A DNA stretch of 64,000 bases from Arenicellales bacterium. GTDB lineage: Bacteria; Pseudomonadota; Gammaproteobacteria; Arenicellales; JAJDZL01. The position numbers and the translations under genes were made by a program. Shown here in pieces: positions 4,003 through 29,067 of this stretch (within the stretch, counting starts at the first letter, position 1; each line of letters opens with the position of its first letter). Under the pieces are notes generated by a model. That model was not told the origin of the DNA. It did no database searches and was given only the letters and a program-made list of their open reading frames with translations. The DNA lies in contig OZ244840.1 in the NCBI GenBank assembly GCA_965220725.1, positions 1,152,548-1,216,547 of the forward strand, read 5' to 3'.

Positions 4003-5196
4003 TTACACTTTCTCTAGTGCGATCGAAATACCCTGCCCGACGCCGACACACATCGTAGCCAAGGCGAGGTCACCGGAATTCTTTAGTTCAAGCGCCGCGG
4101 TGCCGGTAATCCGCGCACCGGACATACCCAATGGATGCCCCAGTGCAATCGCGCCGCCGTTGGGATTGACATGTTCAGCATCCTCCTCGATTCCCAGCTC
4201 GCGCAATACCGCAACCGCCTGACTCGCAAATGCCTCATTCAGTTCAATCACACTGAAGTCCCACGGTTTGATCCCCAACCGGTTACATAGCTTCCGCGTC
4301 GCGGGTACAGGCCCGATTCCCATGATCCTCGGAAGCACGCCTGCTGTAGCACCACCCAGTATCCGTGCCATCGGCCTGAATCCGCAGCGTTTCACTGCGG
4401 TTTCGCTGGCAATGATCAATGCAGCGGCACCATCATTCACACCTGAGGAGTTCCCGGCGGTAATGCAACCTCCATGACGAAACAGCGGCTGCAAAGCCCT
4501 CAACTTAACGAGTGATGTCTCTCGCGGATGCTCATCCTCACTGACACTTGTCGTCTCTCCTTTATGGTGTTTGATCTTGACGGAAACGATTTCCTGCGCC
4601 AACCGTGCCTTTGCCGATTGTGCGCGGTTTTGACTTCGCAAGGCGAAAGAATCCTGTGCCTCGCGCGATACGTCGAATTCTGCAGCAACGTTTTCGGCTG
4701 TTTCAGGCATCGAGTCAACCCCGTACTGGTCTCGCAGAACCGGATTGATAAACCGCCATCCCATTGTTGTGTCGTACATTTCAGCGACACGTGAAAAAGG
4801 CTGTGTGGCCTTTGGCATCACAAACGGTGCGCGACTCATGCTCTCAACGCCTCCGGCAATCACCAAATCGAGTTCTCCACTTCGAATCGCACGCGCTGCG
4901 GTGATGATCGCGTCCATCCCGGAGCCGCATAATCGATTGATCGTGGTACCCGGAATCGTCTTCGGATAACCTGCCAACAGCAACGCCATTCGTGCGACAT
5001 TGCGATTGTCCTCTCCGGCCTGATTGGCACAGCCAAGAATGACTTCATCAACCTCTTCGACTTCAAAGGCCTGGTTTGTCTCAGCGAATGCGCGAAGTGG
5101 AACAGACGCCAGATCGTCGGTTCGAACTGATGAGATCGCTCCGCCGAATCGACCGATCGGGGTGCGCAGGTAATCACAAATGAAAGCTTCAGGCAT
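4003..5196 (-). CDS. 3-oxoadipyl-CoA / acetyl-CoA C-acyltransferase (thiolase, PcaF/PaaJ-like)
   Basis: Internal ATG at 5196 gives MPEAFICDYLRTPIGRFGGA. Thiolase motifs are NRLCGSGMDAI, GHPLGMSGARI and CVGVGQGI. The 80 upstream ORF codons overlap the divergent promoter and the bclA start, so they are probably not translated. Confidence 0.9.
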   Translation of the reverse strand: MPEAFICDYLRTPIGRFGGAISSVRTDDLASVPLRAFAETNQAFEVEEVDEVILGCANQAGEDNRNVARMALLLAGYPKTIPGTTINRLCGSGMDAIITAARAIRSGELDLVIAGGVESMSRAPFVMPKATQPFSRVAEMYDTTMGWRFINPVLRDQYGVDSMPETAENVAAEFDVSREAQDSFALRSQNRAQSAKARLAQEIVSVKIKHHKGETTSVSEDEHPRETSLVKLRALQPLFRHGGCITAGNSSGVNDGAAALIIASETAVKRCGFRPMARILGGATAGVLPRIMGIGPVPATRKLCNRLGIKPWDFSVIELNEAFASQAVAVLRELGIEEDAEHVNPNGGAIALGHPLGMSGARITGTAALELKNSGDLALATMCVGVGQGISIALEKV

Positions 5197-21873: not shown

Positions 21874-21955
21874 TTTCATTTAGCCAACAATGATTTTTCA
21901 AAATGCCTATACTATTTTTTCATTCAGCCAATAATGAATCTTCAGTTTGCCTTAG
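21874..21955 (+). repeat. Array A: four 16-nt direct repeats at exact 22-nt phasing (consensus TTTCAnTnnGCCnAnA)
   Basis: The four repeats are 21874 tttcatttagccaaca, 21896 tttcaaaatgcctata, 21918 tttcattcagccaata and 21940 cttcagtttgccttag. The array ends 34 nt before ATG 21989. Confidence 0.75.
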
Positions 21956-21988: not shown

Positions 21989-23293
21989 ATGCCAAGTAAC
22001 AGCTACTACCCTCGTTACATACATCACCAAGTAGTTGAAGCACTGGAATATTCTCCAGTTGTGCTGATCCAAGGTCCGAGACAGTGTGGGAAGTCGACAC
22101 TCGCTCGAACGTTTCTTGATCCTAAGGATGGTGGCCAGGAATCGAGTACTGAGCAGAAATTCAATGCAAACCGCTACATCACTTTTGATGATCCGGAACA
22201 ACGTGAATTGGCTGATTTTGCTCCTTCAGGCTATCTCGCCTCATTGCCCGACAAAGTGATATTCGACGAAGTCCAAAAGGCTCCGCAACTGTTTGAAGCC
22301 ATCAAGATGTATGTTGACCGCAATCGCAGACCAGGAATGTTTCTGTTGACGGGTTCCTGTGATGTATTGAAACAAGACAACATTTCGGATTCTTTGGCAG
22401 GGCGGATGCGCATCATTCGGATGGACCCTCTGGCACAGTGCGAAATAGAGCAAACCCGACCGAATTTACTCGATGTACTCCTTTCCGGTGAGATAACTAT
22501 CGGCAGATATGCTGAGCCGGATAAACCATTCATACAACGACTCACAGCTGGAGGTTACCCTGATGTATTGAAGTTGCCGCGTGAATCTCTCCGGATCAAG
22601 TGGTATGACGACTATTCCCGATCAATGATTGACCGAGACCTACGGGATATTTCCCGAATTCACAGTATCGCCAGCTTGCCCCAGCTCTTGGAGTCAGCGG
22701 CGGCTAACACATCAAGCCTCCTTAATTCCAGTTCACTGGCATCGCCGCTGAAAGAGAGTCATCCAACCGTGAAAAAGTTTATCTTTCTGCTTGAGCAGAT
22801 TTTTCTTCTTGAACGTTTACGTGCGTGGTACAAAGATGGAAGCAAGCGACTGGTGAAGAGACCAAAACTGCATGTACTGGATACCGGAGTCATAGCATCT
22901 CTCCTGAACATGAACAGCGAGACTCTAGAAAACAATGTTCCAATATTGGGAAAACTGCTGGAATCATTTGTAGTTCAGGAACTAAAACGGCAAGCAAGTT
23001 GGTATGACGGTCGGTTATCGTTTTCTCACTTCCGAGACAGAAGCGGTCTGAAAGTCGACCTCGTCATAGAAGACGACAATCTGTCAGTCGCCGGTATTGA
23101 CGTCAAGGCTGCGAGAACCGTCAGTAAACATGACTTCAAGGGATTGAGAAAACTGGCACAACTGAACGGGGAGAAGTTTGTTGGTGGTATAGTGCTGTAC
23201 GATGGCGACACTTGCAGCGCCTTCGGAAAAGGACTCTTTGCTGTGCCTTTGCGAAGTTTGTGGGAACCTCTTCCGGAGTGGCCTTCCTGGTAA
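21989..23293 (+). CDS. AAA+ ATPase, AAA_14/DUF4143 family
   Basis: It has a P-loop (IQGPRQCGKSTLA) and Walker B (VIFDEVQKAP). The DUF4143-like C-terminal half shows KRPKLHVLDTGVIASLL and GKLLESFVVQELKRQ. Confidence 0.8.
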   Translation: MPSNSYYPRYIHHQVVEALEYSPVVLIQGPRQCGKSTLARTFLDPKDGGQESSTEQKFNANRYITFDDPEQRELADFAPSGYLASLPDKVIFDEVQKAPQLFEAIKMYVDRNRRPGMFLLTGSCDVLKQDNISDSLAGRMRIIRMDPLAQCEIEQTRPNLLDVLLSGEITIGRYAEPDKPFIQRLTAGGYPDVLKLPRESLRIKWYDDYSRSMIDRDLRDISRIHSIASLPQLLESAAANTSSLLNSSSLASPLKESHPTVKKFIFLLEQIFLLERLRAWYKDGSKRLVKRPKLHVLDTGVIASLLNMNSETLENNVPILGKLLESFVVQELKRQASWYDGRLSFSHFRDRSGLKVDLVIEDDNLSVAGIDVKAARTVSKHDFKGLRKLAQLNGEKFVGGIVLYDGDTCSAFGKGLFAVPLRSLWEPLPEWPSW

Positions 23294-23327
23294 ACTTTTC
23301 ACAAGGAATAGTCTATAAGGTATCCGC

Positions 23328-24356
23328 ATGAACGAAGAAGTCCGCGACAAGCATTTGAATACAACGACTCCAGGCAGTGCTAGGTTATTTGATCGGGTTG
23401 CGGAAATTCTCGACGAAACTCACAGCCATGTTGCCCAAACCATCAACAGTGAGATGGTCACAGGTTATTGGCAGATTGGGCGCGAAATTGTCGAGGATGA
23501 GCAAAGAGGACAAAATACACCTGACCACGGTAACGCGTTACTACAAAAACTCTCGCAACTACAAAGCAGTGGGGCATCCCTGTTAACACTTCAGGATTGC
23601 AGGACGTTCTACATGACTTACAGGCACAGATTGGCGTCAGACCTTCATCCAGACTTAAGCTGGTCGCATTATCGCGTCCTGATGCATGTCGAGAACGATG
23701 ATGCGAGGAGATTCTATGAGCAGGAAGTTGCTCGTAACCAATGGACCAAGCGTCAACTTGAACGACAAATAAACACCCTGCTCTTTGAACGCTTGCTCAA
23801 GAGCCACGACAAGGACGGTGTACTACAAATTGCCAATGACATGAATCCATCAGAGCGTCCAATCGACATCTTGAAGGACCCTTACGTTCTAGAGTTCCTT
23901 GATCTACCTGAGTCGGAACGTTTAGTCGAAAATGATCTGGATGCGGTCCTCGTGGCCCATTTACAGGAGTATCTGCTGAGACTGGATTCTGGATTTGCCT
24001 TTGTCGCCAGAAAGAAACGACTCACATTTGAAGGAGATCATTTTTATGCAGATCTGGTCTTCTATCACGTGCGCCTCAAGTGCTATGTAATCATCAACTT
24101 GAAAACAGAAAAACTCACTCCTGGCGACCTCAGCCAGATGCAGATGTACGTTCACTATTATGATCGGGAGATATGTACAAACGAGGACGGTCCTACGATT
24201 GGCTTGATTCTATGCACGGAAAAGAATGATGCCGTAGTTGAATACGTGCTCGGCGAAGATGATGAACATATTTTCGCTAGTCGTTACGATTCGGATCTTC
24301 CGTCCGAGGAAGAGTTGCTAAGTTTGCTTCTTGAGTGGCGCTCGGAACACGAATAA
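23328..24356 (+). CDS. YhcG/DUF1016-family PDDEXK nuclease-like protein
   Basis: The N-terminal helical DUF1016 pattern is VTGYWQIGREIVEDEQRG...LSWSHYRVLM. The C-terminal PD-(D/E)xK-like core is YADLVFYHVRLKCYVIINLKTEKLTPGDLSQMQMYV. Confidence 0.75.
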   Translation: MNEEVRDKHLNTTTPGSARLFDRVAEILDETHSHVAQTINSEMVTGYWQIGREIVEDEQRGQNTPDHGNALLQKLSQLQSSGASLLTLQDCRTFYMTYRHRLASDLHPDLSWSHYRVLMHVENDDARRFYEQEVARNQWTKRQLERQINTLLFERLLKSHDKDGVLQIANDMNPSERPIDILKDPYVLEFLDLPESERLVENDLDAVLVAHLQEYLLRLDSGFAFVARKKRLTFEGDHFYADLVFYHVRLKCYVIINLKTEKLTPGDLSQMQMYVHYYDREICTNEDGPTIGLILCTEKNDAVVEYVLGEDDEHIFASRYDSDLPSEEELLSLLLEWRSEHE

Positions 24357-24527
24357 ATCAGGGTATGAACGATACAAGTAGTCGCGAATCCAGACCTTGC
24401 TAACTCGCAAATGACTCAAAAACTACCGCTCTAATATTGATTGATTTCATATTGAACAATTTATCATCTCTGATCACTCCTCAAACTAGTCATCGGGCGG
24501 TAAACAACGTTTCAAAGATAAATTTAG

Positions 24528-24587
24528 TTTCATTCTGCCGATAAGGATCTTTCATTCTGCCGATATAGTTCTTTCAATTTGCCGATA
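24528..24587 (+). repeat. Array B: three 16-nt direct repeats at exact 22-nt phasing, same motif family as array A
   Basis: The three repeats are 24528 tttcattctgccgata, 24550 tttcattctgccgata and 24572 tttcaatttgccgata. Confidence 0.8.
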
Positions 24588-24811
24588 GATCAATTGATAC
24601 AGAGAGAACTCACAATGAACTATTGTCAAAAGATAAACAGTGCGTTAAAAATTTGTCGTACGGGTTGGATGTCATTGTCTGTATACTCTCGTTCTGCTCT
24701 GGGACTGTAAAAATGGTAGGGAGGCGTTACGTGATTTTGGATAGGCAAGGAGAAAATGTTCGACTACACGAGCCGACTAACTTGAGAGATAAACTATTTC
24801 ATACCTAATCT

Positions 24812-25615
24812 ATGCCAATTGACTTCAAAAAAGAACTTCCTGAAAACCTAATACATCTAGAATTTGGTGAATCTGATGCATCTACAACTTCTCAAGATGT
24901 ATTGAGACAGGTCATCAACCAAATCGAAGAGAACAATGAGACTTCGTTCGTAAGTCTATCGTCGTCTGGGGAAGTCAAATATAGCGAACAGATTCAGCAG
25001 GGGAGAAAACCAATTTCCGATCAAAATGAGGAAATTGTGCGTGCGCTGTTCCTTTTACACCTCACGCAAGATTTAGGGTATAACCCAAGCTGTATCGAAA
25101 TTGAATGCAGAGTCGAAGCCCAAGCTGGAAGAAGACAAAGACCCAAATGGGTTGACATTGCGATAAATAAACCAACAGGGGAGCGATGGGCACTGATTGA
25201 ACTGAAGACTCCGAATGTATATGAAAATGAAAGGAAAGACGCGTGGAGGGGGCAGTTATTTGGAATAGCACATTTTGTACAACCACGACCGAGTTTTCTT
25301 GTGTACGGAACTCTACATGACAACATTCAGTCTGATGAAAACTCTCTAGAAAAAGTTTTACGAGTCGAAATTGCGAATGCGACAGAATTCAAAAACTATG
25401 ACGATTTTTTCAAGAATGGTGAACCAACCGATTCGAAATTGGTGGAAAATTACTCTAATCCGCAAAATCCAATATACATCAAGAACGGTGGAAAAGGCGG
25501 CAAAGCACTTGAAGAAAATTTTTCGAAGAGACAATTTTCGACTCTACAAATGCAACTACATAATGTCCTGTGGGGGGGGGGGAGATCGCAGATACTGACG
25601 TATTTAATTTACTAA
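24812..25615 (+). CDS. N-terminal part of a nuclease-methyltransferase RM protein (HsdR_N-like PD-(D/E)xK domain), terminated by a frameshift in a G11 tract
   Basis: It shows EEIVRALFLLHLTQDLGYNPSCIEIE...PKWVDIAINKPTGERWALIELKTPN (D...ExK). The reading frame ends 30 nt after the G tract. Confidence 0.7.
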   Translation: MPIDFKKELPENLIHLEFGESDASTTSQDVLRQVINQIEENNETSFVSLSSSGEVKYSEQIQQGRKPISDQNEEIVRALFLLHLTQDLGYNPSCIEIECRVEAQAGRRQRPKWVDIAINKPTGERWALIELKTPNVYENERKDAWRGQLFGIAHFVQPRPSFLVYGTLHDNIQSDENSLEKVLRVEIANATEFKNYDDFFKNGEPTDSKLVENYSNPQNPIYIKNGGKGGKALEENFSKRQFSTLQMQLHNVLWGGGRSQILTYLIY

Positions 25616-26931
25616 CTCGATTAATACTCGCCAAGATTCATGATGAGAGAACAACAAACAATCATCAGCCGTATTCTTTTCAGATTTTGAATAACGAGAA
25701 TTTGAAGATCACACTAAATCGTATTGATGATTTGTATCAGAAAGCAATGGAGTCACGCTTGAACATACTCACCTCACAATCAGTTCAAGAACCGGGGAAA
25801 GGTACCGATGCACAAATTAAGTTCGCTATCGAAAAAATCTCCCCGCTAAATCTATCAAAAATTGCAATGTCCGAGGGTGGGCAAGATCTCATCGGTGATT
25901 TTTTTGAACGAATAATACGTACTGGATTCAAGCAAACTAAAGGACAGTTTTTCACCCACTTAAATATCGTAGATTTTATGGTAAGGGTAGTGGGACTGAA
26001 AGAATGGGCAGCTCAAAACGTCGAAACTGGTTCACGACCTCCACGGGTAATCGATCCTTCTGCGGGTTCAGGTTCTTTTGTCATCCGATCTATGTTAGAA
26101 ATGTCGAGAGGGCTAGAGGAATTGAAACTTAGTGACAGTGACTATAGTGATGAAATTGAATCGATATTGTCTGAACTTTCAAATACTAAGGCGGGAAATA
26201 GATGGTTCTCTAGCTACGGAGTCGGATTGGAGATAAATCAAGATTTAGGACTGGCTGCACAGGTAAACATGCTGCTACATGGTGACGGCGCTTCTGCGGT
26301 TTTTGCTGGTCCAAAACACGGCGATGGACTCGCACCGTTCGCAGAATACCCTAGTACTTGTAGCTTATTGGCAAATGAAGGTGTCGCTCCAGATTCATAC
26401 GATGTCGCTGTTTGCGAATCATTTGATGCGGTACTTACAAATCCACCTTTTGCATCAGAAATTCCCGAAGATGATCTAGCTCGGTATGAAAAGTCCTTAA
26501 GAATTATCGAGCACTCAAAGAAAAGTGAGGACCTGTTTTGTGACAGATGGTTTCAACTGTTGAAACCAGGGGGTAGATTAGCCGCCGTCATTCCCAATAG
26601 TGTATTGGATAGCAAGAAAGAAAATTGGAGTCGAACTTGGTTGCTCCGCTATTTTTGGTTAAGAGCGGTCGTGTCACTCCCTGCAGATGCGTTCTATCCA
26701 CATACCTCGACAAAAACTTCAATAATTTTCGCTAAGAAAAAAACACTAGAAGAGTCCGAGCATTCCTCCAACCTTGAAAACATCAAAAACCTAGAATCAC
26801 AATCTGACATCTATATGTCAGTGGCAACATATCTTGGGTATAAGCGTACCGCTAAACACGAGCAATCAATCTTGAGAAACGACCTTGAAGCCATTGCGAA
26901 AGAGTTGGAAGAAAGATGTTTATGGCACTAA
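25570..26931 (+). CDS. Gamma-class N6-adenine DNA methyltransferase part of the same RM protein
   Basis: Motifs are DVFNLLTRLILAKIHDE, GQFFTHLNIVDFMV, motif I VIDPSAGSGSFV and motif IV LTNPPFASE. Confidence 0.8.
   Translation: MGGGEIADTDVFNLLTRLILAKIHDERTTNNHQPYSFQILNNENLKITLNRIDDLYQKAMESRLNILTSQSVQEPGKGTDAQIKFAIEKISPLNLSKIAMSEGGQDLIGDFFERIIRTGFKQTKGQFFTHLNIVDFMVRVVGLKEWAAQNVETGSRPPRVIDPSAGSGSFVIRSMLEMSRGLEELKLSDSDYSDEIESILSELSNTKAGNRWFSSYGVGLEINQDLGLAAQVNMLLHGDGASAVFAGPKHGDGLAPFAEYPSTCSLLANEGVAPDSYDVAVCESFDAVLTNPPFASEIPEDDLARYEKSLRIIEHSKKSEDLFCDRWFQLLKPGGRLAAVIPNSVLDSKKENWSRTWLLRYFWLRAVVSLPADAFYPHTSTKTSIIFAKKKTLEESEHSSNLENIKNLESQSDIYMSVATYLGYKRTAKHEQSILRNDLEAIAKELEERCLWH
25572..25582 (+). 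repeat. Homopolymeric G11 tract at the junction of the two RM ORFs
   Basis: ctgtGGGGGGGGGGGagatc. The upstream frame reads W G G G R S Q..stop and the downstream frame reads (GTG)M G G G E I A D T D. Confidence 0.95.
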
Positions 26932-27662
26932 CAACAAAAGTTCAACCGCAAATTTTTCTTACGCCAAACCGTAAGATTAGATTAGACGCTGATTATGCGA
27001 TCTATATGTCTTCACAGGCATCATTTGAATCTGCGTTTGAAATCGAAAACATCTTTACCGCATATTGGATGCCGAAAGACGATACGAAAGTTACGGATCC
27101 AATCAATTGCTATTACTGTGAGATTGCCGACATTGATCACTATGGGAGAATTACGCCGAAGTTCGTAGATTCAAACTACACCAATGTCGATCCAGATACA
27201 AAAAAGCAACTCGACAGAAAAATAAAAAAAATATCAGAGGGAAAAATTGGTAGTGTAAATTCATGGGCGGTACTTGTGCCAAAGACGAGAGTCTACCAGA
27301 AGAAGTTCGGGTTAGTTTCGGGGAATGAAGACTGCAATTACACAACCGATTTGATCGTCCTTCAAGCTGGATCATATCTGTTGAATCTTTGTGGCGACAA
27401 GATTGCAACTGCCACGTGTTTATTGTGGATATTACTGAAGATTTGGCAGATTGGCGATATTCTGGCAGCAGTTTCTAGATGGGGTAAGTCTTATCCTACA
27501 TTAGATATTGAGGACCTGAAAGAAGTCAAAGTAGACCGTGATGAATTAGAGCGCTGGATAAATCACAATAACGGAATCAAGCGAGCTGAGGAATTGGTGG
27601 GAATTGCCACGGAAATCTGTAACCTCGATGAATCTATCAAGAAATTGATTCGCCTAAAATAG
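26916..27662 (+). CDS. Putative single-TRD specificity (HsdS-like) subunit
   Basis: It overlaps the methyltransferase stop by 16 nt. The TRD-like pattern is EIADIDHYGRI...WAVLVPKTRVYQKKFGLV...YTTDLIVLQ...GKSYPTLDIEDLKEVKV, followed by a C-terminal helix. The assignment is by pattern only. Confidence 0.5.
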   Translation: MFMALTTKVQPQIFLTPNRKIRLDADYAIYMSSQASFESAFEIENIFTAYWMPKDDTKVTDPINCYYCEIADIDHYGRITPKFVDSNYTNVDPDTKKQLDRKIKKISEGKIGSVNSWAVLVPKTRVYQKKFGLVSGNEDCNYTTDLIVLQAGSYLLNLCGDKIATATCLLWILLKIWQIGDILAAVSRWGKSYPTLDIEDLKEVKVDRDELERWINHNNGIKRAEELVGIATEICNLDESIKKLIRLK

Positions 27663-27708
27663 GTCGATAGAGTTTCTACAAAATCGCAAGTCCTTCCGAT
27701 CAAATCAG

Positions 27709-29067
27709 TCAAGCCACAGATGGAATCCCTGCAAGAGCCATCGCGACCTCTTCTTCAGAATACGGCTGATCATGCAGATTACCTGAGAAGTAGTCAGTGT
27801 ATGCCTGCATGTCAAAATACCCGTGCCCACAAAGATTGAACAAAATGGACTTGGCCACTCCCTCCTCCTTGCATCGTATAGCCTCATCAATGGCTGCGGC
27901 AACTGCATGGTTGGCTTCGGGTGCCGGAATGATTCCCTCGCTACGTGCAAACTGAATTCCGGCATCGAAACACTTCAGCTGGGTATACGAGCGCGGCCGC
28001 ACAAAGCCCAGATCCGTCACCAGGCTCACCAGCGGTGCCATGCCGTGATACCGAAGCCCGCCGGCATGAAAGCCAGGCGGAACAAACTTTGATCCGAGTG
28101 TATGCATCTTGACCAAAGGCGTGAGATTGCTTGTATCCCCGAAGTCATAGGCGTACTTCCCTTTCGTCAATGTAGGGCAGTTGGCCGGCTCGACAGCAAT
28201 AACATCAACCCGCTCACCACCGCGGAACTGCTCGCCCAGAAATGGAAACGTCAGCCCAGCGAAATTGCTGCCGCCACCGGTGCAACCGATTACCACATCG
28301 GGATAGTCATCCGCCAACTCAAACTGCTTCATGGCTTCCAATCCAACAACGGTCTGGTGCATCAGTACATGATTCAGAACACTGCCGAGCGCATACTTGG
28401 TGTCGTCGCGCTGGGCGGCTGCCTCAACCGCCTCGCTGATGGCAATACCCAGACTACCGGTGCTGTCAGGATTCTCCGCCAGGATCGCCCGCCCGGAATT
28501 GGTTTTGTTGCTGGGACTCGCAACACAGGTTGCCCCGAAACTCTCCATGAATGCGCGTCGGTACGGTTTCTGGTCATAACTGACCCGGACCATGTAGACC
28601 TCAATCTCCAGTCCGAAGAAAGAACCTGCCAACGACAGGGCGGAACCCCACTGTCCGGCTCCGGTTTCGGTGGAGATGCGTTTGACCCCCTCATCTTTGG
28701 AGTAAAACGCCTGTGCGACAGCGGTGTTTGGTTTGTGGGAGCCCGCAGGACTGACGCCTTCGTACTTGTAGTAGATTCGTGCGGGCGTATCGAGTGCTTT
28801 TTCCAATCGGCGGGCACGATACAGCGGACTCGGCCGCCACTGTGTCAGAATCTCACGCACCGGTTGGGGTATTTCGATGTAGCGTTCCGTCGCGACTTCC
28901 TGCATGATGATGCCCATCGGAAACAATGGAGCAAGATCATCCGGTCCGACCGGTTGTCCTGTGCCTGGATGAAGTACCGGCGGGGGCGGCTCCGGAAGAT
29001 CGGCAGCGATGTTGTACCAGAATTTCGGAACATCAGATTCAGTCAATTGGTATTTAATGGTTTCCAT
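27709..29067 (-). CDS. trpB2: TrpB-like PLP-dependent enzyme (tryptophan synthase beta, type 2)
   Basis: ATG 29067 is preceded by GGAGG (the ORF opens at 29097). Motifs are [26 protein letters not shown] and [12 protein letters not shown]. Confidence 0.85.

Follow-up and report, generated by a model that had tools for sequence, protein, structure and literature searches.

Our analysis covered a window of 64,000 nucleotides of DNA from an uncultured bacterium of the Arenicellales. Within the window lies an RM gene that is divided into two open reading frames at a run of eleven guanines and is followed by a gene for a separate S subunit. The features of the locus are as follows.

24812..25615, plus strand: 5′ part of the RM gene, a 267-aa open reading frame at G11, encoding an N-terminal PD-(D/E)xK endonuclease domain (Pfam HSDR_N_2, E=1.6e-07).
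25572-25582 (genome C1:1178119-1178129), plus strand: uninterrupted G11 homopolymer, slippage-prone, inside the RM reading frame.
25582..26931, plus strand: downstream (3′) part of the RM gene, in a different frame, called mechanically as a 453-aa open reading frame from GTG 25570.
26916..27662, plus strand: S subunit gene, 248 aa, a ‘half S’ with one target-recognition domain (TRD) and a conserved helix.

The two open reading frames are parts of one gene, because the joined protein aligns end to end with its homologues and with RM.BsaXI, and because the spacing at the junction is kept. About 160 database relatives were found for the protein that is read through at G12, many of them 650-700 aa in length with end-to-end coverage, and the two halves align without a gap to the full-length homologues, conserving the junction spacing WGGG-xx-xDxDVF. 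The best solved structure for the joined 706-aa protein is RM.BsaXI (PDB 8w0p_A, E=3.6e-100, residues 41-655), in which the domain order determined by cryo-EM is nuclease, helical connector, methyltransferase (MTase) and knob, plus a paddle in the long forms (PMC11997821). The nuclease residues E98, D115, E130 and K132 align with E73, D90, E105 and K107 of BsaXI, which mutagenesis has shown to be essential for cleavage (PMC11997821), and all of them are in the upstream frame. The 3′ part encodes a helical connector, a gamma-class N6-adenine MTase and a C-terminal region; it matches the Pfam families N6_Mtase (2.4e-22) and Eco57I (3.3e-07), and both motif I (VIDPSAGSGSF) and motif IV (NPPF) are present.

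The S gene overlaps the RM stop by 16 nt. A Pfam search with the ORF at 26916-27662 returned no match, and the single-sequence comparison with S.BsaXI gave E=0.0044. When the ORF was combined with eight relatives into a family profile, the match to S.BsaXI residues 12-223 reached E=1e-31, compared to about 1e-4 for Type I HsdS. Because the profile covers only the first half of S.BsaXI, we assign one TRD, not two, to the window S subunit. The same ORF is 40% identical to residues 696-897, the C-terminal 200 residues, of the relative P0003, and in P0003-P0005, which are about 940 aa long, S is fused to the RM C-terminus.

Since the RM protein matches RM.BsaXI and the S profile matches S.BsaXI, the locus is classified by sequence as a BsaXI-like Type IIB system, with an RM subunit and a separate single-TRD S subunit, for which cleavage on both sides of a bipartite recognition site would be expected. 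It shares with that class the E...D...ExK nuclease residues, the connector joined to a gamma-class MTase, and the S subunit encoded apart. The preliminary description had spoken of an RM methyltransferase; a methyltransferase is indeed encoded, but the gene is more exactly a BsaXI-like Type IIB RM subunit accompanied by its own S gene. A Type IIG single-chain RM enzyme of the MmeI, BpuSI or Cj0031 type was considered and rejected, as the TRD sits in a separate, overlapping gene.

The tract that divides the RM gene is flanked by T on its 5′ side and AGATCGC on its 3′ side, and is the only G/C run of at least 8 nt in the window. Read from ATG 24812, the upstream frame runs ...STLQMQLHNVLWGGG (...LHNVLWGGG), continues as the 10 out-of-frame codons RSQILTYLIY and ends at TAA 25613-25615, 30 nt 3′ of the tract. 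The second frame, a mechanical ORF call, extends from GTG 25570 to 26931, with the sequence GGGEIADTDVFNLLTRLILAK... The coordinates of the split and the distance to the stop had been given correctly in the preliminary description.

To follow the effect of tract length, we simulated the reading frame at each state. The gene is open at G9, G12 and G15, yielding 705, 706 and 707 aa, and is closed at G8, G10, G11, G13 and G14, where translation stops at 262-269 aa. G11 is one G short of the in-frame G12. The simulation bears out the earlier claims that G12 or G9 would give a protein of about 706 aa and that the assembly holds the OFF length. At G12 the junction peptide is ...NVLWGGGEIADTDVF (WGGGEIA, with three glycines). 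The peptide proposed earlier has four glycines (WGGGGEIA) and would need G15. We take G12 to be the natural ON length, because G9 deletes one glycine of the invariant W-G-G-G motif.

This motif provides a way to ask how the tract is made. The tract encodes the W-G-G-G of LHNVLWGGG, which RM.BsaXI also carries, and an alignment of 26 sequences shows no variation at W254, G255, G256 and G257. We read the DNA of 160 homologue loci, 80 from species-representative genomes and 80 from metagenome contigs, and the motif is kept in all 160. Its glycines are encoded there by mixed codons (GGG in 17 of 480), and the longest G run at the motif is 3-7 nt, mostly 4, and never above 7. The window gene instead has TGG GGG GGG GGG, so the run is made wholly by synonymous codon choice. 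Genome-wide, GGG accounts for 11.8% of glycine codons, and all-GGG is found at 6 of the 483 Gly-Gly-Gly tripeptides (0.8 expected). The locus has three of the properties by which contingency loci are recognized: a mononucleotide tract of about 8 nt or more lies inside a reading frame, its length toggles in silico between a full-length and a truncated product, and it is over-represented relative to both composition and homologues.

Comparison of tract length in relatives had been suggested as a check, and the nearest homologues carry tracts as well. In the tree, the window protein forms a 100/100 clade with two Tara metagenome scaffolds, L089 and L090, and all three carry a tract. The L089 protein is 50% identical and is split at the same WGGG motif by G11 (2790-2800), which leaves it OFF; G12 would restore it. 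The host of L089 belongs to a different lineage, because its guaA is only 65-72% identical in DNA to that of the window genome's family. The L090 gene (52% identical) is intact at 655 aa. Its motif is spelled TGG GGT GGT GGT, and a G10 (4509-4518) lies in frame about 30 codons upstream of the motif, at an RRGGGE site. Apart from the tract, neither scaffold has a G/C run of at least 6 nt in its 8-10 kb locus. As judged from these loci, tracts are a feature of the window/L089/L090 clade and occur at two different positions, as selection for mutability with turnover of tracts would produce.

We searched more widely for further alleles. A homologue search for further split alleles with the 267-aa N-terminal fragment recovered only the copy on a related contig, L001, and one distant match. 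Exact-protein look-ups with the window S and MTase ORFs gave no match in other assemblies, an exact 24-nt search with the tract flank gave none among JGI metagenome contigs, and look-ups with the S proteins of the Tara homologues returned only the same contigs. Among more distant BsaXI-like homologues, that of the closed MAG L010 has a C14 (2902-2915) at the extreme 5′ end of the RM frame. In the closed Gammaproteobacteria MAG L018, four runs of 8-11 nt (996-1006, 1120-1129, 2169-2176 and 2414-2424) are situated within 2 kb upstream of the homologue, inside or between neighboring genes.

The L001 copy allows a close comparison. L001 is an ENA contig labelled as 2.88x coverage and shares the island containing the RM locus at about 98% DNA identity. 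Over the 2.9-kb operon, the only indel relative to the window is at the tract, where L001 has G7+A in place of G11, in the same OFF frame. Elsewhere on this contig (8241-9498), one additional G (+1) in a short run of G's interrupts a trpB-like gene, and other +1 homopolymer indels are present; these look like sequencing error. Because such errors break trpB in the 2.88x contig, the L001 tract length is weak evidence of variation.

The same comparison bears on whether the gene is simply dead, that is, whether the frameshift is fixed and the RM system is decaying, with the tract as the point of breakage. Such decay would fit the absence of an ON-length allele among those that bear a tract at this site, since the copies of the window, L001 and L089 share a single OFF frame. 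The L001 copy, moreover, has its tract interrupted and its NPPF motif changed to NPLF, and the gene appears dispensable, as no RM orthologue is found in the 35 other genomes of the family. The dN/dS ratio over RM+S between the window and L001 is 0.39 (19.5 synonymous and 27.5 non-synonymous changes), raised relative to the flanking housekeeping genes (0.02-0.25). However, this value is significantly below 1 (binomial p=0.001 against neutrality), and errors in L001 would raise it rather than lower it. Purifying selection has thus acted on RM+S, a sign that would be absent from a long-dead pseudogene. The window copy also has no second lesion, neither a stop nor a frameshift, in the 2.1 kb of the RM gene or in the S gene, and its nuclease and methyltransferase motifs are intact. 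Finally, an all-GGG run where 160 homologues encode the motif otherwise requires an explanation beyond decay. On this evidence we regard a dead gene as improbable.

The RM locus is in a low-GC island (40-43%, compared to 53% for the genome) and adjoins genes for a DUF4143 ATPase and a YhcG nuclease. Across 21989-27662, DNA identity to L001 is uneven: 78% for the DUF4143 ATPase (dS about 1), 94% for YhcG, 98-99% for the RM and S genes (dS 0.00-0.05), and 94-96% for the housekeeping genes to the right (dS 0.12-0.20). Homology between the two sequences ends to the left of the ATPase gene, where L001 goes directly into groES/groEL. This pattern of divergence suggests that the RM cassette was recently exchanged and that the ATPase allele was replaced. 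A 22-nt direct repeat (for example TTTCATTCTGCCGATAAGGATC) recurs with 22-nt phasing at 24528-24571, within the 455-nt gap that precedes the RM gene, and related copies at 21874-21939 lie directly ahead of the ATPase gene. A regulator common to the two promoters of the island may bind at these repeats. A promoter and terminator scan of 24300-27800 gave nothing above the shuffled expectation.

The tract is one of a set in this genome, which is a metagenome assembly of 2.94 Mb in one contig at 53% GC. G/C runs number 129 at length 6, one at length 7, none at length 8 and ten at lengths 9-14. The lengths are bimodal, and intermediate ones seem to be avoided while long ones are retained. The ten long tracts, with genome positions, are as follows.

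G11, 1178119: BsaXI-like RM gene of the window, OFF.
C14, 527210-527223: Type IIG RM gene of roughly 1400 aa, split by the tract, OFF.
C10, 525930-525939: the Type IIG RM gene that also holds the C14, in frame.
C12, 736055-736066: hsdS, with the conserved C-terminal helix cut off, OFF.
G9, 1599177-1599185: sspC of the phosphorothioate Ssp system, split, OFF.
C9, 956425-956433: surface-protein gene (He_PIG + fn3), in the signal-peptide codons, ON.
C10, 1274264-1274273: surface-protein gene, in the signal-peptide codons, OFF.
G10, 2569942-2569951: autotransporter gene (He_PIG + fn3 + beta-domain), in the signal-peptide codons, OFF.
C12, 961500-961511: fragment resembling the 5′ end of a surface-protein gene, state unclear.
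G9, 1772564-1772572: hlyD, in frame.

By gene, the set comprises four genes of DNA modification or defence (Type IIB, Type IIG, hsdS and sspC), four surface-protein genes and hlyD. Six tracts are OFF, three are in frame and one is unclear, and random phase would predict a similar ratio of 2:1. Of the 31 genomes of the genus, 30 contain runs of at least G9; some have dozens, and one has up to about 240 overlapping matches.

A caveat on the state read for the window tract is that a metagenome assembly can miscount a run of 11 G's by one. The majority length could actually be G12, in which case the gene would be intact and the OFF state an artefact, although the tract would still be mutable. Exactly one base is needed, long G/C homopolymers are the hardest for all platforms, the genome is a single-contig metagenome assembly, and the related low-coverage L001 does show +1 homopolymer errors. 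Several observations speak against such an error. None of the 59 A/T runs of at least 8 nt in the genome shows a split-gene signature, so the assembly is without a general homopolymer frameshift problem. Out-of-frame lengths are found as well at shorter tracts, where calling is easier (the G9 in sspC, for instance), and the mix of three in-frame and six out-of-frame tracts fits random phase better than a one-way error. The Tara scaffold L089 is likewise OFF at G11, and two contigs on record encode an identical downstream protein. We therefore think it unlikely that the OFF state is a consensus or assembly error.

We propose instead that the G11 is probably a simple-sequence contingency locus in a BsaXI-like Type IIB RM gene, a slippage-driven ON/OFF switch caught in the OFF state. 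The preliminary description had offered the tract as a candidate phase-variable switch, and this proposal gains support from the unity of the gene, the synonymous GGG tract, the tract sets of the genome and genus, the tracts of the nearest homologues, and purifying selection. At G12 (or G15), a single protein is encoded with the PD-(D/E)xK nuclease, the helical connector and the N6-adenine methyltransferase in order. At G11, translation ends 10 codons past the tract, and the predicted product is the 267-aa nuclease-domain fragment only. The downstream two-thirds of the RM gene has no start of its own except the GTG that overlaps the tract. We considered independent translation of this ORF and set it aside, in that the GTG (TTG in L089) simply falls on codons at the tract. 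No purine-rich ribosome-binding site is seen before the downstream GTG; this is a weak argument, on which nothing here depends, since none is seen before the true ATG at 24812 either.

In the proposed mechanism, slipped-strand mispairing at replication would add or remove G's. Because nuclease and MTase are one polypeptide, with the tract between the nuclease domain and the remainder, a slip to OFF would remove both activities. The OFF fragment would be without the methyltransferase and without a link to the S subunit, and because restriction and methylation would be lost together, the switch would be safe to throw. A population would then hold a mix of RM-on and RM-off cells, trading the exclusion of phage and foreign DNA against the cost of restriction or against DNA uptake. 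MutS and MutL are present in the genome, and slippage rates may therefore be lower than in Campylobacter. An effect of methylation on gene expression is possible in principle but hypothetical here. We do not adopt the phasevarion label for the RM locus, since that term is defined by a methylation state that changes the expression of a set of genes.

The window, L001 and L089 alleles, which bear a tract at this site, all need the same -1 shift, and this raises a different idea: in the small marine clade of BsaXI-like RM genes, being one G short could itself have been selected, as a recoding site. G11 would then be the normal length, and a low, set output of full-length enzyme would come from a -1 shift of the ribosome on G GGG GGG or from a G added by RNA polymerase. 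The cell would have a constant, small supply of the complete enzyme together with large amounts of the nuclease-domain fragment, and there would be no switch at the DNA level. A -1 slip on the run yields exactly the downstream frame, G GGG GGG is a perfect slippery heptamer, and the same shift is required at G11 in two genes that are only 50% identical and come from unrelated hosts. However, neither gene has a stimulatory RNA structure after the tract (z-scores +0.60, -1.05, -0.23 and +0.14, with shuffled controls), the third clade member, L090, has its tract in frame and elsewhere, and the other tracts of the genome are in all phases. Three alleles would share a frame by chance with a probability of only about 0.04-0.07, and the L001 allele does not count as independent from that of the window. 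We thus hold recoding as the function of the tract to be very unlikely, and selection for G11 as a recoding site in this clade to be just as remote.

For a contingency switch in the RM gene, the closest known system is cj0031 of Campylobacter jejuni, and the window locus is a credible phase-variable locus of a well-known kind. The cj0031 gene is a fused RM gene that is ON at G9 and OFF at G10, with OFF the state of most colonies (Anjum et al. 2016, PMC4889913). The same logic has been proposed there, with one OFF slip causing the loss of both activities (PMC4889913). Like the window gene, cj0031/cj0032 is a fusion of endonuclease and N6-adenine methyltransferase with an intragenic poly-G, so placed that one slip removes both; each is annotated as two ORFs at the OFF length, and in each case the tract is in only some alleles of the gene family. 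The genomes are alike as well, in that surface structures dominate the poly-G/C contingency loci of both. The differences are that cj0031 is a 1243-aa single chain with its own TRD, whereas the window enzyme has a separate S subunit, and that the window tract is between the nuclease domain and the connector, at the invariant WGGG motif. Furthermore, switching, methylation motif and phenotypes have been measured for cj0031, whereas the window locus is a candidate whose host is an uncultured bacterium with MutS and MutL.

Comparing the window system with the BsaXI (RM)2S complex (8w0p; PMC11997821) shows the same domain order, the same four catalytic nuclease residues, the LHNVLWGGG motif and a homologous separate S subunit. 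RM.BsaXI is 916 aa long with a C-terminal paddle, whereas the 706-aa window protein belongs to the short class without the paddle (PMC11997821), and S.BsaXI has two TRDs (476 aa) compared to one in the window S (248 aa). BsaXI lacks a homopolymer tract and is not a known phase-variable enzyme. A further comparison is to the phasevarions of Haemophilus, Neisseria and Helicobacter, which involve phase-variable Type III mod and Type I hsdM/hsdS genes (surveyed in PMC5909438 and PMC7383803). There too, simple-sequence repeats within a methyltransferase or specificity gene cause stochastic ON/OFF expression. Those genes, however, are separate from the nuclease, and an effect on a regulon has been demonstrated for them, whereas the window locus is a sequence-level candidate.

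Homopolymer phase variation of RM genes is textbook knowledge for the host-adapted pathogens Campylobacter, Helicobacter, Neisseria and Haemophilus, and phase-variable Type I, Type III and Type IIG systems are already well documented. A full-text literature search returned no phase-variable example of Type IIB (BsaXI-class) and none from sponge symbionts. The window locus adds a candidate phase-variable example in a BsaXI-type Type IIB enzyme. It also shows how such a tract arises, through synonymous codon choice at an invariant Gly-Gly-Gly, and the relatives show turnover between two sites. The tract belongs to a set of ten in an uncultured bacterium, and such tracts occur across the genus. 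If the switching is true, it would support the view that host-associated bacteria in general, and not the pathogens alone, hedge their bets in genes for defence and for the cell surface.
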